Positions 4,448-58,785 of a stretch of DNA of 64,000 nt are shown here, piece after piece; the first letter of the stretch is position 1, and each line of letters starts with the position of its first letter. The notes under the pieces are model-generated. The model had not been told where the DNA came from, did no database searches, and was given only the letters and a program-made list of their open reading frames with translations. Made by a program: the position numbers and the translations under genes. The DNA comes from Escherichia coli (lineage in GTDB: Bacteria; Pseudomonadota; Gammaproteobacteria; Enterobacterales; Enterobacteriaceae), in NCBI RefSeq assembly GCF_965641715.1, contig NZ_OZ282453.1. The stretch is one strand, 5' to 3'.

Positions 4448-4897
4448 ATGGGTCTGTTCAATTTTGTGAAAGATGCCGGAGAAAAACTCTGGGACGCGGT
4501 TACAGGTCAGCACGATAAAGACGATCAGGCGAAGAAGGTGCAGGAGCATCTGAACAAAACCGGTATACCTGATGCCGATAAAGTGAACATTCAAATTGCC
4601 GACGGCAAAGCGACGGTCACTGGTGACGGCCTGAGTCAGGAGGCGAAGGAGAAAATCCTTGTTGCGGTGGGGAATATTTCCGGTATTGCCAGTGTTGATG
4701 ATCAGGTGAAAACGGCGACACCAGCCACTGCCAGCCAGTTTTATACCGTTAAGTCTGGCGATACTCTGAGTGCCATTTCCAAACAGGTCTACGGTAACGC
4801 CAATCTGTACAATAAAATCTTCGAAGCGAATAAACCGATGCTAAAAAGCCCGGATAAAATTTACCCGGGGCAAGTGTTGCGTATTCCTGAAGAGTAG
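4448..4897 (+). CDS. kbp: Kbp (YgaU) potassium-binding protein with BON and LysM domains
   Basis: ORF 4421-4897; likely start [20 protein letters not shown]...; C-terminal LysM-like [50 protein letters not shown]. Confidence 0.9.
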
Positions 4898-5560
4898 TTA
4901 ATTGCCAGCCATCGCCTGCTGGATAATGGGAATTGGCGTCAGTAAATGCTGGCGCATTAACTCACTGGCGCGCGCGGTATCTCGCGCCAGTACCGCCGCA
5001 GTCAGGGTCTGGTGCTGATCGTGTTTATCCTCCAGCATTTCCACCGAAAGCACCGTTCGCCGCAGCCAGATAAATCGATAACGCGCCGCCAGATCAAACA
5101 ACCGTTCACGCATTTGCAGCAAATAGTGAGAACCACAGCCCGCCACAATTGCAGTATGAAACGCCTGATGACGCAGATCCCACTCATCAAGCATTTTCTC
5201 GCTAGCGTCACAGGCCTCAAGCTTACTCAGCAGATGCGCTTTTGCGAGAACGTCTGCCTCCCACTCATCGTCACCGCGGGCAATCGCCAGACTCACTAAC
5301 ATCGCTTCCATATTGGCGCGGGCGTCGAAAATATCGAGCAGCTCCTGCTCTGACATAGACGCCACCCGATACCCTTTTTGATTCACCACCGTGACCAGCC
5401 GTTCCGCCACCAGTTGCGAAAGAGCTTCCCGTAACGGCCCAACGCCAAGTGCATAACGCGATGTCAGCAAATTCATTCGTAATTTTTCATCCGGTTGAAA
5501 ATTACCGCGAATAATATCGTTCTTCAGCCAGCGATAGCCATCCAGAGACGTAATGGTCAT
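4898..5560 (-). CDS. csiR: CsiR GntR-family repressor of the csiD-lhgO-gabDTP operon
   Basis: ORF 4898-5578; likely start MTITSLDGYRWLKNDIIRGNF...; GntR/FadR-type architecture; directly downstream of gabP. Confidence 0.9.
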   Translation of the reverse strand: MTITSLDGYRWLKNDIIRGNFQPDEKLRMNLLTSRYALGVGPLREALSQLVAERLVTVVNQKGYRVASMSEQELLDIFDARANMEAMLVSLAIARGDDEWEADVLAKAHLLSKLEACDASEKMLDEWDLRHQAFHTAIVAGCGSHYLLQMRERLFDLAARYRFIWLRRTVLSVEMLEDKHDQHQTLTAAVLARDTARASELMRQHLLTPIPIIQQAMAGN

Positions 5561-47046: not shown

Positions 47047-49869
47047 ATGACGGCAGAGTACATCAGGGACTGGCAACAACCGCGCCACGCAGTGGGACGT
47101 GAAGGAACGGGGATCCCCGTTCCTGAATCCGCGCTTTCCTCCTGGCTGGATGCCTACCGGGCAGAGAACGAGCGCCGCCAGGAAATGGCTGATGCGGCGT
47201 TCTCCGCCACGCCGCTGGGCAACCTGATTAATAAAAGCCTGGATGCACAGGAAAAACAGGACAAAACCATCACACTGGCAGGAGACGCCAGAAAACAGGT
47301 ACGCGGTGCGGTGGATGAAGCCATGGCCTCGCTGCGCCTGCTGCCGTCCTATCTGCGCGATCCGCTTATTCGCCACCTCTCCTTCCTGCGCAAAAAACAG
47401 GAAGCCGATCGCCGGAAAGGCAAAAAGAGCTGGCAGGCTGAACGCTACGCGCGCGGAACCCTGCGCAAAATATTCGAACGTCTGGACCGCACCGACCACC
47501 GCTGGCTGACACCGGGTTATCGCTCCCTTGCCGGACGCGAACGCCTGGATGATTTGCTTTACCTGCCGCAGCTCAACAAGCACCAGATACAGACGCTGGC
47601 CACCATGACGGCGGCGATGTTCAGCAGCACCTTCGAAAAACTCTGCGATGGCTTTGGCGCGACTGATGGCGAGCTGACCATGGATGTAACGCTGAAGGCG
47701 TATCAGATGCTGGCCCGCATGGCGTTACACCTGCACGCCATGCCTCCGCATTATGATGCACTGACAACAGACAAAGACCGGAGGAACGAACCGGACACGG
47801 AGCTGCTGCCGGGCGCAATCCTTCGCCTGACCTGTGCGGAATGGTGGAAACGCAAACTGTGGCTGTTACGTTGCGAGTGGCGGGAAGAACAACTCCGCGC
47901 CGCCTGTCTGGTTTCCAGAAAAACATCGCCCTATCTGAGCCAGGACGCGTTAAGCGAGTTTCGCGCACAGCGCGAGAAAACACGCGATTTCCTGAAAAGT
48001 TTCATGCTGGAAAACGAAGACGGGTTCACGATTGATCTCGAGACGGTGTATTACGCGGGAGTAAGTAACCCGGTTCATCGTAAGGCAGAAATGATGGCCA
48101 CCATGAAGGGGCTGGAACTTCTGGCCGAAGCCCGTGGCGACAAAGCGGTGTTTCTGACTGTCACCTGCCCGTCAAAATACCACGCCACAACAGAGAACGG
48201 TCATCCGAATCCCAAATGGAACGGGGCCACCATGCGCGACTCCAGCGATTACCTGGTTAACACGTTTTTTGCGGCGGTCCGCAAGAAACTGAACCGCGAC
48301 GGCCTGCGCTGGTATGGCATCCGCACGGTGGAGCCTCACCATGACGGCACCGTGCACTGGCATATGATGGTCTTTGCTCATCCGGAAGAAATCGACACCA
48401 TTGTGTCCCACACCCGCGATATTGCCATTCAGGAAGATCGTCACGAGCTGGGTGATGATATTACCCCACGCTTTAAGGCGGAGTACGTCGACGGCTCAAA
48501 AGGCACACCGACCAGCTACATCGCCACCTACATCGGGAAAAACCTGGACAGCCGTGCCGTGGATGGCATCGACCCGAAAACGGGCAAGCCACGCGTTGAC
48601 CACGAAACCGGAAAATCAATGGCCGAGAGCGTGGAACGCGCCATCGGCTGGGCGCGCCTTCATCGGGTCCGCCAGTTCCAGTTCTTTGGCATCCCCTCCC
48701 GTCAGGTGTGGCGTGAACTGCGCCGCCTTGCCAGCCAGATGGCTCGCAACCCGGAAGGACCGCAACGGCTGAAGGATGACGCAATGGACGCGGTTCTTGC
48801 TGCCGCTGATGCCGGATGTTTTGCCACCTACATAGAGAAACAGGGCGGCGTACTTGTTCCACGCAAGGACTACCTGATTCGCACCGCCTACGACCTCGCA
48901 GATGAGCTGAACGATTACGGTGAACAGAGCGTACAGATTTACGGGATCTGGTCACCGCTCATCGGGGAGTCTTCCCGCGTATGCACGCATCCGGACAACT
49001 GGAAGCTGGTAAGACGCAAACCGGAAGCGGAAGACAGCGCCCGCGAAAATGGTTTTGACCTTCAGGGCGGCCCTGCCGCCCCTTGGACTCGTGGCAATAA
49101 CTGTCCCCGTGTACAGGAAACAGGCAACAGCGGGACAGAACAGTCGAAAGAACGGCCAGCACCGTGGCCGCAGCTTCCTGACGGCGTTGACGTGAACGAA
49201 TGGATGCGCTCACTGAAACGGCACGAACGCCGGGCGCTGATGCGTTCGCTTCGTGACAAACAGGCAAAAAACAGCAGTGATGAAATGCAGAGCTGGACAC
49301 AGAGCCGCAAACAGCCACGGCCTTTGCCTGATAACCACGAATTACTCGCTAAAGAATGGCGGGAGTCTGCTGAATCTCTCGGCCTGCATATCGGTGAACA
49401 ACAGATGCAGCACCTGTTACGGGGCGGCAGTCTGTACGTTGACGGCAGCATCATTGCACCGCAGGGATTTGAAATTGTACGCAAACCGGATACCCGCCCG
49501 GACAGCCGAATCACGCAGCTCTGGCAGCGCCTGAGCCGTAATCATGGCGTAAGCAGCACGGAGATCCGCCATAACCCGGTCGCCAGCTATCTGGCACAGC
49601 TGGGGGCATCAGACCCTGAAGCCGCCGCACGCCTGGCATCCACACTTCAGCAGGACCAGAACACCATGAAAACACCCGTTACCGTGCTTTCTGACATGCT
49701 GCGCGCCATCCGCGACGCAGAGCACGCACAGAGAATCAGTGAAACCACTGAACGCGCCAGCCGCAAAGCAGACCTGCTGCGGGGTGGCCTGACCAGTGGA
49801 AACAAAAAACAGACAGAAACGGGATTCACAAATCCCATAAATGAGCAAAAAACGTGCCGCGATATATGA
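47047..49869 (+). CDS. P2 gpA-like rolling-circle replication initiator endonuclease (940 aa)
   Basis: HUH-type motif region ...GIRTVEPHHDGTVHWHMMVFAHPEE...; position after the early ORFs matches P2 gene A; unusually long C-terminal region. Confidence 0.85.
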   Translation: MTAEYIRDWQQPRHAVGREGTGIPVPESALSSWLDAYRAENERRQEMADAAFSATPLGNLINKSLDAQEKQDKTITLAGDARKQVRGAVDEAMASLRLLPSYLRDPLIRHLSFLRKKQEADRRKGKKSWQAERYARGTLRKIFERLDRTDHRWLTPGYRSLAGRERLDDLLYLPQLNKHQIQTLATMTAAMFSSTFEKLCDGFGATDGELTMDVTLKAYQMLARMALHLHAMPPHYDALTTDKDRRNEPDTELLPGAILRLTCAEWWKRKLWLLRCEWREEQLRAACLVSRKTSPYLSQDALSEFRAQREKTRDFLKSFMLENEDGFTIDLETVYYAGVSNPVHRKAEMMATMKGLELLAEARGDKAVFLTVTCPSKYHATTENGHPNPKWNGATMRDSSDYLVNTFFAAVRKKLNRDGLRWYGIRTVEPHHDGTVHWHMMVFAHPEEIDTIVSHTRDIAIQEDRHELGDDITPRFKAEYVDGSKGTPTSYIATYIGKNLDSRAVDGIDPKTGKPRVDHETGKSMAESVERAIGWARLHRVRQFQFFGIPSRQVWRELRRLASQMARNPEGPQRLKDDAMDAVLAAADAGCFATYIEKQGGVLVPRKDYLIRTAYDLADELNDYGEQSVQIYGIWSPLIGESSRVCTHPDNWKLVRRKPEAEDSARENGFDLQGGPAAPWTRGNNCPRVQETGNSGTEQSKERPAPWPQLPDGVDVNEWMRSLKRHERRALMRSLRDKQAKNSSDEMQSWTQSRKQPRPLPDNHELLAKEWRESAESLGLHIGEQQMQHLLRGGSLYVDGSIIAPQGFEIVRKPDTRPDSRITQLWQRLSRNHGVSSTEIRHNPVASYLAQLGASDPEAAARLASTLQQDQNTMKTPVTVLSDMLRAIRDAEHAQRISETTERASRKADLLRGGLTSGNKKQTETGFTNPINEQKTCRDI

Positions 49870-49945: not shown

Positions 49946-50905
49946 ATGAAAATTTGTATCGACGACGGCTCCACCAACATCAAGCTGGCATGGACTGAGA
50001 ACGGCGAACGCCGCAACGCCATCAGCCCGAACAGCTTCAAGTCGGAATGGTCTGCGCCGTTCGGTGGCTCGCAGCCCGCGAACTACATGCTTGATGGCGT
50101 GCGCTATGGTTTTGATCCGGTCAGCGATCGCTTTGTCCAGACGACCGACACGCAATACCAGTACAGCGATGTGAATGTCATTGCCATTCATCACGCGCTG
50201 GTCAAATCAGGCATCACGCCACAGGAGGTGGATGTGGTTGTCACCCTGCCATTGAGCGAGTATTTCGACACAAACGCACAGCCGGACATGGCCAACATCA
50301 GCCGCAAAAAAGCGAACGTTATGCGCCCGGTGGAGTACCAGAACGGCGAAACATTCACTATCCGTAACGTACGGGTTATGCCTGAATCCATTCCGGCTGG
50401 CTTTAAAGCACTGGCTGACATGAGTCCGCTTGAATCCCTGCTGATTGTGGATTTGGGCGGAACCACACTGGATGTGGCAAAGGTTCAGGGGCAACTGGCA
50501 GGTATCAGCCAGGTGTTTTGCGATCCACACGTAGGCGTTTCCCTGATGGCCGATGCCGTACTGTCGGTGATGGCCACTAACGGTATGCGTATCAGTCACC
50601 ACATCGCCAATACCATTATCGAACATCGCCATGATGAAGCCTGGTTGCGCCAGCACATCCACAATGACGCGCATTACGCCAGCCTGATGGCGGTTATTCG
50701 TGAAAAGGAAGAAACACTGAAACAACGCGTGATCCGCGCGCTGGCGGTTTTTTCGGGTTACGGGCGGGTGATGGTTGTCGGTGGCGGGGCGGAGATTGTG
50801 GCACCCGCTATCCGCGAAGCCTGCGGAGTTAATGCGACTTTCATCGCGGACGGGGTGCCACAGTTTGCTCTGGTTAATGGGCTGTACGCAATGGACAAGG
50901 AGTAA
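49946..50905 (+). CDS. ParM/StbA-like actin-fold ATPase (319 aa)
   Basis: N-terminus MKICIDDGSTNIKLAWTE...ISPNSFKSEW...YQYSDVNVIAIHHALVKSGI...LIVDLGGTTLDVA... matches the recalled plasmid R1 ParM phosphate-1/connect/phosphate-2 motifs; strong RBS. Confidence 0.8.
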   Translation: MKICIDDGSTNIKLAWTENGERRNAISPNSFKSEWSAPFGGSQPANYMLDGVRYGFDPVSDRFVQTTDTQYQYSDVNVIAIHHALVKSGITPQEVDVVVTLPLSEYFDTNAQPDMANISRKKANVMRPVEYQNGETFTIRNVRVMPESIPAGFKALADMSPLESLLIVDLGGTTLDVAKVQGQLAGISQVFCDPHVGVSLMADAVLSVMATNGMRISHHIANTIIEHRHDEAWLRQHIHNDAHYASLMAVIREKEETLKQRVIRALAVFSGYGRVMVVGGGAEIVAPAIREACGVNATFIADGVPQFALVNGLYAMDKE

Positions 50906-50909
50906 ACCA

Positions 50910-51221
50910 ATGACGACTCCAACCAGACGGATAAGTTTCTATCTGAAGCCCGCCGCCGTCAAGAACGAAGGTGAAGCATGCGCCTGGCTGGACAGCCTTA
51001 CACCAGAAGCGCGCAAAAGCGGCCAACGCGTGGCTTTTCTGGCCGGGCTGGCACTTCTGAAAATGAATCCGGCAGAGGCTTACCGACTGGCTGCATGGGC
51101 TGATGATGAAGCGTTATCAGTGACACAAACCAGGACAGAACGCCCCGCGTCACAGCCAGTATCAACCGCACAGATAACCAGTCAGATGGCCGGAAATATC
51201 CGGGCGTTATTTCCCGAATAA
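50910..51221 (+). CDS. ParR-like small DNA-binding protein (103 aa), partner of the ParM-like ATPase
   Basis: ORF 50775-51221 with probable start MTTPTRRISFYLKPAAV...; RRISFYLKP...RVAFLAGLALLKMNP...NIRALFPE parallels recalled R1 ParR (RRTIAFKLNP...RAALTAGLALYRQDP...ILRSLFPKE); 4-nt gap after parM-like gene. Confidence 0.7.
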   Translation: MTTPTRRISFYLKPAAVKNEGEACAWLDSLTPEARKSGQRVAFLAGLALLKMNPAEAYRLAAWADDEALSVTQTRTERPASQPVSTAQITSQMAGNIRALFPE

Positions 51222-51284
51222 CACAACATCAGGGCGCATCCGCCCTGATGACTTTAACCCGGGAACATAAACAAGGGGGACACA

Positions 51285-51620
51285 ATGCAACGCATTGACA
51301 GAGAAAAAGCGCAGCGACTGATTGAGCGGATGGAAGCGCTGGCGAAAGAAGAAAATGTCAACATCCAAAAAATAGCTGAATGTGGCCAGATAGTTCTTCG
51401 TCGTGAAAAAGACCTCAAACAACTGATGTCTGGCGAAACCAGCAAAACATGGACTTCAGGTGAGGAGACGATTTATTGCAGCTTCTGCAATAAATCCCAG
51501 TACGAAGTCACAAAGGTGATTGCCGGACCGTCTGTTTACATCTGCAATGAGTGCGTTGATTTGTGCAATGAAGTTATCAGGAGAGAAGTGACAGACCATG
51601 AAGAAAAAACGCATGAATGA
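51285..51620 (+). CDS. Small protein with C-terminal ClpX-type C4 zinc-binding domain (111 aa)
   Basis: [40 protein letters not shown] is near-identical in pattern to the ClpX N-terminal ZBD ([39 protein letters not shown] as recalled); N-terminal 60 aa predicted helical; own AAGGGGGA RBS. Confidence 0.8.
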
Positions 51621-51786
51621 CGAATTTGACGGCTTTTAATTTTATCGGGGCGCACTGTCGCCCTGCATGGAGAAAAACAATAAAAAAGATGAATAACTGC
51701 TCATGTCAGACGCGCTGCGGGCAAGTCTGGCACCCTGCCCTGTCTCCGCAAAGGCTGTTGTCTTAACACGACAGAGTATGCCAGCA

Positions 51787-52194
51787 TTAAATATAATCTT
51801 CTTCGTAGTCGCTGATTAATTCATTGCCATAATCAGACAGCAATTTCAAAGCAAAGGTAACTTCCTCAAGGGTAGCTATCCCCATTGCTGAAAACACCGT
51901 TAATTTAACCAGCAGCAGGGAGTTTGAAAGTTCGGAAGAGTTCATCATTAAAAATATTGATGCAGCCTGAAAAGCTGTGCGTTTATTCCCATCATGAAAG
52001 GCATGAGCCTTGGCTATACCAATCAAATACATAGCAGCCAGAGCATGAATATCATCAACCCCTTCATAGTAGTGTAGTGTCCTGACGCGATTTAAAGCAC
52101 CTTCAAGTAGCCCGTCATTGGCATTTCCGCTCTGGGGTAAAGTTTCAGCATGGATACGTTCTACTTGTTCTTTTGACAAAAACACTATGTCCAT
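51787..52194 (-). CDS. Doc-like (Fic/Doc family) toxin
   Basis: 135 aa ORF with Doc-type Fic motif HAFHDGNKRTA (HxFx[D/N]GNKR); start overlaps stop of upstream antitoxin-like gene. Confidence 0.8.
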   Translation of the reverse strand: MDIVFLSKEQVERIHAETLPQSGNANDGLLEGALNRVRTLHYYEGVDDIHALAAMYLIGIAKAHAFHDGNKRTAFQAASIFLMMNSSELSNSLLLVKLTVFSAMGIATLEEVTFALKLLSDYGNELISDYEEDYI

Positions 52195-52550
52195 CAGTTA
52201 TCCTCAAGCTTTTTAATGATATCCGCATGTTTTTCTCTTGTACGCTTCATTGCATCTTCAAAAGACAATCCTTTTTTTCTCTGTGCGACAAGAGCTGGAT
52301 GACGTTTTTCCAGATCTCTCACTGCATTTATTAAGAGTGGTTGCTTCATTTTGTTTATTTGATCCCGCAGTTTTTTGGTTTTGCCAAGGACAGCCCGTAT
52401 TTCAGGACTAAGATCAGAACCAGCAAGAACAACATCCTTCCCTCCCTGCGCCGTGATAACGACACTGCCACCGGAAGAAAGGTAATCCAGAATTTCACTC
52501 AGGTTCTCACGAAATTCATCATCAGTTACAGTTTTCATATTCATTTCCAT
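52194..52550 (-). CDS. Phd/YefM-like antitoxin with extended C-terminal region (118 aa; start ambiguous among three ATGs)
   Basis: N-terminal MKTVTDDEFRENLSEILDYLSSGGSVVITAQGGKDVVLAGSDL resembles the Phd/YefM fold; basic C-terminal 60 aa; overlaps doc-like gene (ATGA arrangement). Confidence 0.7.
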   Translation of the reverse strand: MEMNMKTVTDDEFRENLSEILDYLSSGGSVVITAQGGKDVVLAGSDLSPEIRAVLGKTKKLRDQINKMKQPLLINAVRDLEKRHPALVAQRKKGLSFEDAMKRTREKHADIIKKLEDN

Positions 52551-52617
52551 TATGCACGCCCATAACGTAAGTATAACGGCTTGTTGGGCAGTAATAACAC
52601 CGCCATATTTTCATTTT

Positions 52618-52652
52618 ATACACCGCACAATAGTGCACAAATTTGCACAATT
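52618..52652 (-). promoter_or_regulatory. Candidate promoter/operator of the phd/doc-like operon with three iterated GCACAA sites at 10-bp spacing
   Basis: Plus strand CGCACAATAGTGCACAAATTTGCACAAT; minus strand reads TTGTGCAAATTTGTGCACTATTGTGCG followed by TATAAAAT -10-like element, then the antitoxin start. Confidence 0.5.
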
Positions 52653-53074
52653 TTTTTGAACAACTTTTTACCCTTCCGGCCCGCGTGGCGACTGGATCCG
52701 TCAAGGATCCGTGCGTGCACAAAAAAACGCGTTTTTTCTGCGCGCAGGTGACGGGGGAACAGCCCGCGTTTCAGGGGGTAAATAGCATTCCCTGAACGAT
52801 GTCGCAGCGACACAACAGAATGGCTGTATTTCTCACACTGAGCGTGAAAAAGGCGTGAGGGCTTTTGATTTGATGGGGTGACAGATAAGGCCGTCAAAAT
52901 CGCACTGAGGCGGCAAGAACATGCAGTCAACGCGGTGGGATTGCGTAAGAGCCTGACCGTCGATGATGGCGATAAGCTGGAAGACGTCGTGAAATTATCT
53001 GATTGATACAGGAGCTGGAGAGTCGGGGCATAAATTTTTTATGCCCCGGCGAAGCAGCAGACAAGCGAAGCGCG

Positions 53075-54121
53075 TCAGGATGTGGGCTGGGTGTCCAGCA
53101 GTGCGTAAGGGTTAAAGCGGATCACCTCTTCGCCAAGCCAGTCATTGATATGCTTCATGGCCTCCATGACGGGCATCAGCTCGTTAATTGCGTAAACCCG
53201 CGCTGCCTTCTCCACATCACCAAACGCACTTTTTTCGCCCGGCATCGCCCCCATCAGTTGCGGCGGAACGCGGTGCGCAGCCAGCACATCATCACGGGAT
53301 GCCGCCTTAACATTCATGAACTCATCCTTTGCGGTGATCTGCTGGAACGGCAAAATTTGCACACCTTCTTTGCCCCCGTTGGGCGCGTGAATGAGCACGT
53401 TTTTAAATGCACCACCACCACGCGCACCCTGTAGCGTTTCCTTCAGGGAGTCCATGCTTTCGCGGTTTACCTGCGCTGCACCGATGTAGATGATGCACCC
53501 GGCGTGGGATCCATTGTCGTAGTACAGTTTTCTGAACATGTCCGCCGAATGAGACAGGCTGGCCGAGAGTAATGCGCCAAGATATTCCGGCATGCCGTAA
53601 ATTTCCTGGTTAATGTCCGGATTCATCAGGTGGCACACTTTGCCAGGGCGAAACTGAAACGCGTCCTTGCCATCCTGCACATACCACCATGATTCAAGAT
53701 CGCTTCCGCGTCGCATGTATTTCGCCAGTGCGTGCCGTAATTTAAGTGGTTCGCCGAGCATATTGCTCCGAAGCTCAAGGAATGCGTTACCGAACACAAA
53801 CCAGTCCAGCGCCAGCGCCGAGAAATCCTGCCGGGAAAGCAGCGGGTGCGGGATGTAGCAACCGAGCAATACATTGCGCTTAAAGTAAAGCGCAGACTGA
53901 TGCCAGGACGTTTGCCGGGCGGCTCTTGCCAGACCGTACCAGTCCACCGGGGTTTCATACCACCGCCCGTTATCAGCACAGTACATATTGTCCAGCAGGT
54001 CATGCCCGGTCAGGCGGTAAGGACCATCAAATGTGAATGCACTGAGCGACGATTCTTTCCTGAGCGCATCAGCGAGATCAATGCGTGAACTCATGCGCAC
54101 TTTTTTATTTTTTCTGCTCAT
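53075..54121 (-). CDS. Portal protein (P2 gpQ-like)
   Basis: 348 aa ORF in the conserved position and orientation of P2 Q; start overlaps the stop of the terminase gene. Confidence 0.9.
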   Translation of the reverse strand: MSRKNKKVRMSSRIDLADALRKESSLSAFTFDGPYRLTGHDLLDNMYCADNGRWYETPVDWYGLARAARQTSWHQSALYFKRNVLLGCYIPHPLLSRQDFSALALDWFVFGNAFLELRSNMLGEPLKLRHALAKYMRRGSDLESWWYVQDGKDAFQFRPGKVCHLMNPDINQEIYGMPEYLGALLSASLSHSADMFRKLYYDNGSHAGCIIYIGAAQVNRESMDSLKETLQGARGGGAFKNVLIHAPNGGKEGVQILPFQQITAKDEFMNVKAASRDDVLAAHRVPPQLMGAMPGEKSAFGDVEKAARVYAINELMPVMEAMKHINDWLGEEVIRFNPYALLDTQPTS

Positions 54122-55872
54122 CAGAACTCCATAACCGTGAAACGCTCGTTTTCTCCTTCGCCGCCAATTGGTTCGTTAATGACAGCAAGCATGGTTGCCC
54201 ACGCAAGGTCGCCGTGGCTGATCCCCCTCGCGCGGTCCGTTTCGTAAGTGATAAAGCCGCCCGGTGTTTTCACCTTACGCACGGCGTTAAAGGCCGCGAC
54301 CAGCTCGCGTTCGGCGCGATCGTATTCCCACCGCCCGGCACGCATTATTTGCAGCATTTTCAGTACCAGCGACCGTTTTGATGACAGCGTGAAGGTGTAC
54401 GGAATAGCGGCAGGGAAAAACCGTTTCACTATCTGATAAACAGCCTCCCCGTTCCCGCCCGTCACATCAATGCCGATGTGTTCCACGTTGTAGCGACACG
54501 TGAACTCTTCAATGACTCTGGCCTGTTCTTCAAACTCCAGCCCCTGAACGCGTCGCGTCTCCACCGTTCGAAAACGGCCACCAGGAACAGCCGGAGGAAC
54601 CACCACGGACACCGCGCCACTGTCGCCGTTTCCACTGCTGCCGTTTGCGTCATACCCAATCCATACCGGACGATTCCCCATCGGGCGGGGAGCAAAAGGT
54701 TTCCAGTCTTTCCAGTCGTCGTATCCGTCAACACCGCAGCCAATCAGGATATTCAGGTTAAATGCCGATTCCCCTTCGCGGACAAACTCACACATATAGA
54801 GATTGCGGAACTCGTCTTCGGTGTTTTCATCACGAATTTCATCAATATCGGTGTGTTTCCAGCCGTGATTAACCACATCTTCCAGCGTGACAATTTGCCG
54901 CCACGTCCGGTCGGGGCAGATAAGCCCGTTATGCAGCGTTTTCCAGTCCACAGAAAAACGCTGGCGTTTATGCGCGGCCTTTTTCTCGTTCCAGCGGTCG
55001 CCGTTCCAGTAGACGTATGCCTCGTGCGTTTCGGTTGATGGCGTGGAGAAGTAGGTGCGTCGCAGCCCGCTGAGGGTTGCCATAGCGCCAGCCACCTTGC
55101 GCAGTTCAGCAAAGCGACTGACCCAGAAAAATTCATCAAAATAAAAATTGCCTGTGTAGGACTGTGCCGTCGCAGCAGAAGTGCCGAGAAAATGCAGCTC
55201 TGCGCCGTTGGAGAGGATGATTTTATCGCCCCCTTTCAGCTCCACATCAACTTCAGATGCAGCCTTCTGAATAATGCTTTTAAACTGGAACGCCTGACGA
55301 CGCGACGCAGACAAAAAAATCTGGTTACGCTGGTAAGGTTGCGCCACATCGTCACGCAGCGCCATCAGCAGTGCTTCCTGTGCAAAATACCAGGTCGCCC
55401 CAATCTGTCGGGATTTCAGGATCATCCTGTTACGTATCCCGGCTTCCCTGCAAAGGGTCAGGGAGTCAAACCAGCCCCGCTGATGCCACTCCAGCCTGCT
55501 GATGATTTTTTCCCGCAGTGCGGCAATCTGTTCCGGCGTGAAATGATTTTTAAGCTTTTTCGCCCGGCCTTTCTTTCCTGTGGCCGTCGCATCCGGCTGG
55601 CCATCATGCAGTTTTTTAAGCTGCCGGGTCAGCAGGTCTATTTCCTTAAAGTCACCGCCTGTTTTATTCTGTTTTTCAGTAAGCTGGATGAGGCGCGCAT
55701 CGATGGACTGCGTGACACGCTGCACGGGTGGCGTTTCATCCCACTGGTCGCGTTTTTTCCACGCATAAATCGTGTTCGGGTTTATTCCCATCAGACGTGA
55801 TATTTCAGCGGGCGGATAACCCTGCCAGTAAAGTTGTCGCGCACGCTGGCGCACAAAAGCGTCCTGAATCAT
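54121..55872 (-). CDS. Terminase large subunit, ATPase (P2 gpP-like)
   Basis: 583 aa ORF MIQDAFVRQRARQLYWQGYPPAEISRLMGINPNTIYAWKKRDQWDE... with N-terminal HTH and ATPase/nuclease regions. Confidence 0.92.
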   Translation of the reverse strand: MIQDAFVRQRARQLYWQGYPPAEISRLMGINPNTIYAWKKRDQWDETPPVQRVTQSIDARLIQLTEKQNKTGGDFKEIDLLTRQLKKLHDGQPDATATGKKGRAKKLKNHFTPEQIAALREKIISRLEWHQRGWFDSLTLCREAGIRNRMILKSRQIGATWYFAQEALLMALRDDVAQPYQRNQIFLSASRRQAFQFKSIIQKAASEVDVELKGGDKIILSNGAELHFLGTSAATAQSYTGNFYFDEFFWVSRFAELRKVAGAMATLSGLRRTYFSTPSTETHEAYVYWNGDRWNEKKAAHKRQRFSVDWKTLHNGLICPDRTWRQIVTLEDVVNHGWKHTDIDEIRDENTEDEFRNLYMCEFVREGESAFNLNILIGCGVDGYDDWKDWKPFAPRPMGNRPVWIGYDANGSSGNGDSGAVSVVVPPAVPGGRFRTVETRRVQGLEFEEQARVIEEFTCRYNVEHIGIDVTGGNGEAVYQIVKRFFPAAIPYTFTLSSKRSLVLKMLQIMRAGRWEYDRAERELVAAFNAVRKVKTPGGFITYETDRARGISHGDLAWATMLAVINEPIGGEGENERFTVMEF

Positions 55873-57984: not shown

Positions 57985-58785
57985 ATGATTACCCCTGCAC
58001 AGCAACACTGGCAGAACGTGATGGCGCAGCGCGCAGGCCGGGCGAATGAAGGCGTGGATCACGCCGCACGTACCGCGCATGAAGAGGTGCTGTATCGTCT
58101 GCGTCTGGCACAGGCCCGACTTAAGGGCGTACAGGCCAGAAGCGCCAAAGCCGCCATCAAAAAAGAGTTGTTACCGGACTTTTCTGGCTGGATTGAAGGA
58201 ACGCTGGAGGCTGACGGCGGGCAGCAGGATGAGGTGATTGCCACGCTGATGGTGTGGGCGATTGACTGTGGCGATCTTCCGCTGGCATTGCGTATTGGTG
58301 CGTATGTGGTCCGTCACAACCTCATCATGCCGGATAACTTTGGCCGTACTGCTGCCACAGTGCTGACCGAAGAAATCTGCAACCCGGTACTGACGCAGGC
58401 CGGGACGGATGCCGACGCGGATTTGTCCGCCTTTATCGAACCACTGGACACCCTCCGGGAGATTGTCACCGACCAGGATATGCCGGACGAAGTACGCGCC
58501 AAATTATGCAAGGCGTGCGCCTTTGCCCGCCGTGGCCTGAGCGATGCGGACAGCATGGCCCTGTCACTGAAGCTGCTGCGCGAAGCGATGCACCTGAACC
58601 CGAACGCAGGTGTGAAACGCGAGATTGCAACCCTTTCCCGCGCCCTGAAAAAAGCCGATTCCGCAGCCGCCCCAGATGACGCCAGCGCACAGCAGGCGCA
58701 GGACGAAAGCAGCAAAAGTAAAAAGACAACGCGGAAGCCTGCAACACGAAAAACCACCGCGACGCAGAAGGCGAAGCGCGTTTAA
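57985..58785 (+). CDS. Terminase small subunit / endonuclease (P2 gpM-like)
   Basis: 266 aa ORF; ...DMPDEVRAKLCKACAFARRGL... matches P2 M motif DMPDEVRAKL; basic C-terminal tail. Confidence 0.9.
   Translation: MITPAQQHWQNVMAQRAGRANEGVDHAARTAHEEVLYRLRLAQARLKGVQARSAKAAIKKELLPDFSGWIEGTLEADGGQQDEVIATLMVWAIDCGDLPLALRIGAYVVRHNLIMPDNFGRTAATVLTEEICNPVLTQAGTDADADLSAFIEPLDTLREIVTDQDMPDEVRAKLCKACAFARRGLSDADSMALSLKLLREAMHLNPNAGVKREIATLSRALKKADSAAAPDDASAQQAQDESSKSKKTTRKPATRKTTATQKAKRV

Follow-up and report, generated by a model that had tools for sequence, protein, structure and literature searches.

The stretch considered here, positions 52551–53074 of a 64,000-nucleotide window of Escherichia coli DNA (contig NZ_OZ282453.1; the whole window has an exact match in the E. 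coli chromosome NZ_CP074781), lies in a P88-like prophage (Xuanwuvirus, Peduoviridae; P2 family), where it separates a Phd/YefM-type antitoxin gene from the portal gene Q. This placement had been proposed in an initial annotation of the sequence and was borne out by gene calls and Pfam searches. The antitoxin gene (52194–52550, minus strand; PF02604, E-value 7.8e-07, just below the Pfam cut-off) is paired with a Fic/Doc toxin gene (51787–52194, minus strand), and Q (53075–54121, minus strand; PF04860) encodes a protein with 47% identity to P2 gpQ. From comparison of the sequence with its relatives we propose that the interval very probably holds the cos (packaging) site of the prophage at about 52624–52768, with 52551–52623 belonging to the phd/doc cargo and 52766–53074 made up of spacer and a hairpin.

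Two features of the interval are clearly non-random, a cluster of heptamers and a G-rich 19-mer, and both were overlooked in the initial annotation. The cluster opens with three heptamers in a 10-bp phase on the plus strand (CGCACAA at 52624, TGCACAA at 52634 and TGCACAA at 52644; block 52624–52650), the first of which begins with C instead of T in the window, and this block is the proposed terminase recognition element. A T7 tract, with a likely role in intrinsic DNA bending, follows directly on its 3′ side (52651–52657, plus strand), and a fourth TGCACAA (52716–52722), the putative proximal recognition repeat, runs into an A7 tract (52721–52727; whole element 52716–52727, plus strand); both the T7 tract and this last element are kept in distant relatives. 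Four (T)GCACAA heptamers therefore fall within 100 bp, when exact TGCACAA occurs nine times on the two strands of the 64 kb, and the triple repeat occurs once in the window. The G-rich core, GGTGACGGGGGAACAGCCC at 52747–52765, is also unique in the window. The predicted cosN, with a 19-nt cohesive end, occupies 52745–52765 on the plus strand and would read CAGGTGACGGGGGAACAGC from 52745 if placed by geometry, or GGTGACGGGGGAACAGCCC from 52747 if placed by sequence.

The interval is carried by about 1,100 of 5,426 complete E. coli genomes at 93–100% identity, the homology beginning at query position 20–25, equivalent to window positions 52620–52625. Relatives were gathered from IMG/VR with two independent patterns, the triple heptamer and the G-rich core, which gave 106 unique sequences, 32 of them less than 60% identical to the window overall. 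In these 32 distant relatives only four blocks are kept: 52625–52660, which comprises the three heptamers and the T7 tract; about 52665–52684; 52715–52726, which is the fourth TGCACAA with its A tract; and 52740–52768, which reads GCGCGCA-GGTGACGGGGGAACAGCCC-GCG. The 19-mer itself is identical in 90 of the 106 unique relatives, and 97 of 100 unique relatives keep a distance of 92 bp between the first heptamer and the fourth, despite divergence of the spacer sequence between them. Among 67 close sequences, variable sites make up 14% of the cos core as against some 45–49% of 52766–53011.

The core aligns without gaps to the P2 cohesive end, GGCGAGGCGGGGAAAGCAC, with matches at 13 of 19 positions, and an intermediate form, GGCGAGGCGGGGGAGCAAG, present in a P2-like prophage (L008) and five IMG/VR loci, falls in the same alignment column. 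Further intermediates are reported for the Salmonella phages SEN4/SEN5 (ggcgaggcgggggaacgag; PMC5261728) and for Ralstonia phage phiRSA1 (GGTGAGGCGGGGTCCAAC; PMC5694545). To judge from these alignments, the core is homologous to the 19-nt cohesive end of P2, 186 and P4. An alternative alignment, which set the A6CGCGT6 palindrome upstream of the core opposite the P2 cohesive end, was rejected: the palindrome is unconserved and the intermediates align with the G-rich core. The spacing agrees as well. Measured from the first repeat, a P2-like core begins at +121 and a P88-type core at +123, with a CGGGGGA block at +128 in both, and the left nick is therefore predicted at 52745 ± 2. Counted from 52745 the heptamers begin at −121, −111, −101 and −29 (each two further if counted from 52747), and in P2, P4 and 186, with ends taken from the cohesive-end annotation in their records, TGCAT stands at −123 or −124, −111, −101 and −29 from the first base of the cohesive end. 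An upstream repeat array at a fixed distance from the cut, as found here, is a hallmark that we draw from our own comparison of P2, P4 and 186 and not from a published definition. The position is also that of a P2-family cos: 310 bp separate the core from the Q stop codon, the phd/doc cargo flanks it on the opposite side, and in P2 and 186, too, cos has right-end cargo on one side and the portal gene on the other. The same arrangement, cos between right-end cargo and Q, appears in the literature on the hotspot (PMC9122126), and the P2, 186 and P4 sites go back to Ziermann and Calendar (1990), as cited there and in PMC5694545.

A satellite that relies on the terminase of a helper must carry the cos of that helper, as P4 does. 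One satellite-like element of 12.7 kb lies between gcd and hpt in a sequence type 131 (ST131) genome (NZ_CP051609.1, about 3782.4–3795.1 kb). It encodes two integrases, an Icd-like protein, a toprim primase, an Ogr/Delta protein, a 236-amino-acid protein of unknown function, MazEF and its own P2-family major capsid protein (423 amino acids; PF05125, E-value 3e-73; N-terminal extension of about 120 amino acids), and its annotation includes no portal, terminase or tail gene. Its DNA matches the window over 52625–52789 at 80% identity and otherwise only in one weaker stretch of 209 bp (71%) near 46.1 kb, so that cos is the main DNA homology between the satellite and the prophage. In the reciprocal search the satellite was found in about 52 of the 5,426 E. 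coli genomes, and the P88 prophages among the matches listed align with it over cos only; the same element is represented in IMG/VR by four loci (L026, L035, L103 and L114). A P4-like satellite with its own capsid gene instead of Sid and Psu seems unusual.

Hybrid sites were also observed. In six loci (L008, L034, L050, L059, L096 and L112) the TGCACAA array is joined to the P2-like core GGCGAGGCGGGGGAGCAAG, which sits 2 nt nearer to the repeats, and this suggests that the recognition and cleavage modules may evolve separately. When the terminase subunits of the window, L008 and P2 were compared with respect to the repeat type, those of L008 were nearer to the window in every domain. A different combination is seen in L021 (IMGVR_UViG_2515154021_000006), which has three TGCACAA and the fourth with another G-rich core, GCTCGCGAGGGGGTGGGGAGCGCGA, and has no portal gene within 10 kb downstream; it may be another type of satellite or a cos variant.

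The identification of cos rests on the agreement of position, core homology, geometry, satellite sharing and single copy number, and several observations weigh against it. Because the triple repeat served as the search pattern for the distant relatives of the first set, its conservation among them is circular. A scan of IMG/VR with the core 19-mer alone recovered all four heptamers at exact offsets in 97 of 106 unique upstream regions, the rest being shifted by run-length changes, and the three heptamers accompany the cosN core in essentially all relatives found in this way; the circularity is therefore removed. For the nick positions, geometry points to 52745 and sequence to 52747, an uncertainty of at least 2 nt. 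None of the deposited phage records starts or ends at the predicted core, and no physical ends are known for P88-like phages in the collections searched. The record of P88_4B11 opens 76 nt upstream of the core, at the equivalent of 52669, which is taken as an arbitrary choice; one IMG/VR locus (L148) that seemed to start at cos was discarded, its start being a storage chunk boundary and not a contig end. The records of Chuche and P88_4B11 contain deletions of 7 and 5 nt, respectively, inside the predicted 19-mer, and these are found in none of the 90 sequences in which the 19-mer is intact. They may be real variants, which would be hard to reconcile with a fixed overhang, or may have arisen in assembly at the physical ends of the genomes, in which case they would indirectly support cos. 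The hairpin downstream of Q, finally, is without covariation, and neither strand provides it with a U-tract.

The proteins that would act on the site are encoded nearby. Gene P (54121–55872, minus strand; PF06056, PF03237 and PF17289) encodes a gpP-like terminase large subunit, 44% identical to P2 gpP, with an N-terminal helix-turn-helix domain (PF06056); this subunit would be the one that cuts cosN. Beyond it come the scaffold gene O, the capsid gene N and the small terminase gene M (57985–58785, plus strand; PF05944), whose gpM-like product, 37% identical to P2 gpM, is a candidate reader of the TGCACAA repeats. We propose that terminase (gpM with gpP) would bind the three helically phased (T)GCACAA heptamers together with the fourth copy 92 bp on, recognition being through gpM, the N-terminal helix-turn-helix domain of gpP, or both, and that bending of the DNA between the repeats is probably aided by the T7 and A7 tracts. 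Staggered nicks by the gpP nuclease would follow, within the G-rich core at about 52745–52765, and would produce P2-like 5′ cohesive ends some 19 nt long. In this scheme the block of three heptamers is the proposed counterpart of lambda cosB. Inspection by eye for the consensus of integration host factor (IHF) gave no convincing site.

The gene A side of the putative cos coincides with a sharp limit of homology. Positions 52551–52623 are unconserved in 66 close and 32 distant relatives and form a cargo-specific leader of the phd/doc operon (minus strand), outside the conserved phage backbone. Presumably the phd/doc promoter and operator lie there; a consensus scan found no promoter in this segment. 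Homology among P88-like phages starts at 52624/52625, and clustering of 103 loci gave 36 unrelated groups for the 400 nt upstream of the first repeat but 14 for the downstream side, one of them with 68 loci; in different loci unrelated sequences directly abut the first heptamer. The suggestion in the initial annotation that the interval might hold the cargo-side recombination boundary is thus upheld, and on this evidence the boundary is the outer edge of the predicted cos. As cos must be kept, it would provide a fixed edge against which the variable cargo of a defence and toxin–antitoxin hotspot is exchanged. Published accounts are in line with this: the gpA–gpQ hotspot adjoins cos (Rousset et al. 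2022; PMC9122126), and a cosL–Q insertion hotspot is attributed to Dodd and Egan (1996) and Nakayama (1999), as cited in PMC5694545. As in those hotspots, variable cargo, here phd/doc, abuts cos on the gene A side, and some relatives use a second, minor slot between cos and Q, which holds a phrog_5091 gene; in the window, by contrast, the cos–Q slot is empty.

The elements listed in the initial annotation all exist, several of them at other coordinates. The perfect palindrome AAAAAACGCGTTTTTT lies at 52722–52737, not 52712–52727, and the palindromic CTGCGCGCAG said to flank it is found at 52738–52747, on its 3′ side only. A 35-bp imperfect palindrome (TGCGTGCACAAAAAA/TTTTTTCTGCGCGCA, 52712–52746) encloses the perfect 16-nt palindrome. 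Perfect 16-nt palindromes are not remarkable here, the window containing four when about one is expected, and AAAAAACGCGTTTTTT is perfect in only 30 of the 106 unique relatives; the commonest form is AAAAAACGCGCTTTTT, and the perfect form is absent from distant clades and from the satellite. The GGATCCGT direct repeat, listed without a position, has its copies at 52694–52701 and 52705–52712 (element 52694–52712, plus strand). It can also be read as a GGATCC/GGATCC inverted repeat. Only members of the E. coli P88 clade have this spacer element (about 69 of 106 sequences), while the satellite and distant relatives have unrelated sequence of equal length in its place. As for the GGGGCAT/ATGCCCC hairpin, it is present at 53025–53047, one position from where it had been placed (53026–53048), and its stem extends to a perfect 11 bp (53024–53034 with 53038–53048; feature 53024–53048, minus strand) closed by a 3-nt loop.

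This hairpin begins 27 nt past the Q stop codon and is thus a GC-rich stem-loop immediately downstream of a gene. No shuffled sequence out of 200 folds as well (z-scores of −4.1 and −6.7, the former on the Q-sense strand), the hairpin is unchanged in 66 close relatives, and every divergent lineage has a different GC-rich hairpin 6–27 nt past the portal stop codon. The rho-independent terminators annotated in P2 (tQ) and 186 (tW) are likewise strong GC-rich stem-loops just past the portal stop codon on the portal-sense strand. Because the hairpin is strong, its position is conserved across lineages and tQ and tW occupy the same position, it is probably the 3′-end or terminator hairpin of the P–Q late operon. 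In place of the U-tract of a canonical intrinsic terminator, the sequence after the stem reads GACUCUCC on the Q-sense strand and GGCGAAGC on the plus strand, and a scan for the terminator consensus did not report the hairpin; given the missing U-tract, canonical intrinsic termination is unproven.

Other readings of the conserved part of the interval were considered. The TGCACAA repeats could be iterons with no part in packaging, either a parC-type centromere for ParM and StbB or operators of a cargo regulator, and phased direct repeats are indeed typical of centromeres and operators; the prophage, moreover, has ParM and StbB genes at 49946–51221. We think this very unlikely, as the distance from repeats to core is fixed in all relatives, analogous repeats stand at the same offsets in P2, P4 and 186, and the repeats also occur in the satellite and in the P2-like prophage L008, whose annotated regions contain no ParM or StbB. 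In addition, the usual place for parC, upstream of parM, has none of the window's nine exact TGCACAA copies. Equally improbable is that the palindromes (A6CGCGT6, CTGCGCGCAG and GGATCC) are the targets of a dedicated recombinase or nuclease that swaps cargo independently of packaging. Palindromes do commonly serve recombinases, and the cargo boundary does fall inside the interval, but at 52624/52625 it is some 100 bp from the palindromes, of which one is perfect in 30 of 106 relatives only and another, the GGATCC repeat, is limited to one clade. Clades that lack the palindromes show equal cargo variation, and published work ascribes the hotspot to its position beside cos (PMC9122126).

The remaining alternatives concern the segment between the predicted cos and Q, for which the initial annotation had suggested a small undetected gene or a regulatory RNA. 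Its GTG-initiated frame exists on the plus strand, with 42 codons and a stop (52878–53006) in place of the 45 codons up to 53015 given there, and is unlikely to be a gene. Of 67 close relatives, 59 keep this frame open and 63 an antisense frame of 45 amino acids (52927–53064), and the P88 and P88_4B11 records annotate the plus-strand frame as a hypothetical protein. Against this, its start codon varies (GTG, TTG, ATG, GTA, GTT, ATA, GGG, ACA and AGG), eight of the 67 close relatives have frameshifts or stops, and variable sites by codon position (22/23/13) show the reverse of a coding pattern. Synonymous changes (15 of 62) are at the neutral expectation of 25%, the antisense frame (23 of 57) does no better than a shifted control frame (21 of 56), and none of the six frames was positive in coding tests. 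Neither peptide matches Pfam or PHROG, the region is missing from distant relatives, and in most of the listed genomes the Prokaryotic Genome Annotation Pipeline (PGAP) leaves it without annotation. The small gene was accordingly rejected, and there is little prospect that either frame encodes a protein. A regulatory small RNA or cis-acting RNA from 52770–53048, ending at the hairpin, seems scarcely more probable. The hairpin is strong and invariant, and the sequence is about 95% conserved within the E. coli clade; yet a consensus scan gave no promoter-like (sigma-70-like) site, the hairpin has no U-tail on the plus strand, and variation is near neutral, with 45–49% of sites variable. The only match in a scan of 51500–54000 against Rfam 15 (E-value mode) was gyrA RNA at 22.2 bits, treated as chance against a gathering score of 45. 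Distant relatives and the satellite, moreover, do without the region, gene insertions interrupt it in others, and the suggestion of a regulatory RNA is left unsupported.

That spacer (52766–53011) is specific to its clade and unconserved in distant relatives, and is best described as an empty slot; together with the segment that follows, it appears to be essentially neutral, E. coli-clade-specific sequence that ends in the hairpin. A phrog_5091 gene (about 170–197 amino acids, function unknown, no Pfam match) was observed to one side of the hairpin or to the other in 15 IMG/VR loci and in L009, another P2-like prophage. It is inserted at the equivalent of 53078–53094 in L013, L054, L067 and ten others, where the last Q codons are replaced (DEKTAP for DTQPTS), and at 53002–53012 in L014 and L041; in L009 it lies at 4495–4998. 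Such insertions fit a second small cargo slot between cos and Q, in keeping with the cosL–Q hotspot. Two genomes match the interval only over the 63 bp at 53012–53074, with 98–100% identity, L009 being the one of the two whose context was examined. The last 12 or so codons of Q (53075–53110) are hypervariable among relatives that are otherwise 95% identical, with 72% of sites varying and no codon periodicity. As these hypervariable codons lie beside the near-identical 53012–53074, the pattern marks a recombination junction at the 3′ end of Q.

Upstream of the toxin–antitoxin pair lie the replication gene A (47047–49869; PF05840), the ParM and StbB partition genes (49946–51221; ParM PF06406 and PF21523, StbB PF10784) and a gene for a ClpX-zinc-finger protein (51285–51620). 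The gpA-like protein has 940 amino acids, of which the GPA domain covers residues 179–503 only, and more than 400 C-terminal residues are without a Pfam match. A plasmid-style partition module (ParM/StbA actin-like, StbB and ClpX-type zinc finger; 49946–51620) downstream of gene A is unexpected in an integrated P2-like prophage.

The site proposed here is ordinary for its phage family, and none of these results overturns current understanding; a literature search for the 19-mer and for a description of a P88 cos found nothing, and this cos variant is undescribed in the literature searched. P88-like prophages are carried by about 1,100 of 5,426 complete E. coli genomes, and most of the genomes listed have nothing annotated in the interval. 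The site is also the fixed limit of a highly variable hotspot for cargo and defence genes and helps automated surveys to set hotspot boundaries. A change of repeat from TGCAT to TGCACAA would explain a packaging specificity distinct from that of P2, and we give an even chance to the view that P88-type cos sites form a separate packaging-specificity group in the P2 family, with the repeat changed and the spacing kept, which dedicated 12.7-kb satellites with their own P2-type capsid protein carry in order to use P88-like helpers. If this is true, the hybrid sites would show the two specificities, for recognition and for cleavage, to be modules that evolve apart. Set against those of P2, P4 and 186, the repeats and their spacing offer a concrete, testable model of how packaging specificity is read in the P2 family, and possible uses include the design of P88-specific cosmids or transducing particles and the prediction of satellite–helper dependence.

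Set beside known systems, the predicted site most resembles the cos of P2, 186 and P4. In common with these it lies between right-end cargo and Q, has a G-rich core and four spaced repeats, occurs once per genome and is shared with a dependent satellite, and an inverted repeat abuts the core, as one abuts cosN in P2, P4 and 186 (CCGCCC...GGGCGG in P2 and P4). It differs in its repeat unit, TGCACAA here and TGCAT there, and in the A and T tracts that flank the repeats. With respect to P2 in particular, the core is GGTGACGGGGGAACAGCCC instead of GGCGAGGCGGGGAAAGCAC, the distance from core to Q is 310 bp instead of 167 bp, the terminase is only 37% (gpM) and 44% (gpP) identical, and the ends here are predicted. 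The terminator-like hairpin differs from tQ and tW in standing 27 nt from the stop codon without a U-tract. Among the intermediates, the SEN4/SEN5 end has the CGGGGGAAC block in common with the core (PMC5261728) and the phiRSA1 end its GGTGA start (PMC5694545), in each case with different flanks.

Lambda offers a more distant parallel. Its cos comprises the R-sites of cosB, an IHF-induced bend and cosN, and the overhang is 12 nt. The likeness is one of functional analogy only: several phased repeats for recognition stand to one side of the site that is nicked, and bendable DNA separates the two. The sequences and the proteins are not homologous, and the overhang predicted for the P88-like site, about 19 nt, is that of the P2 family.

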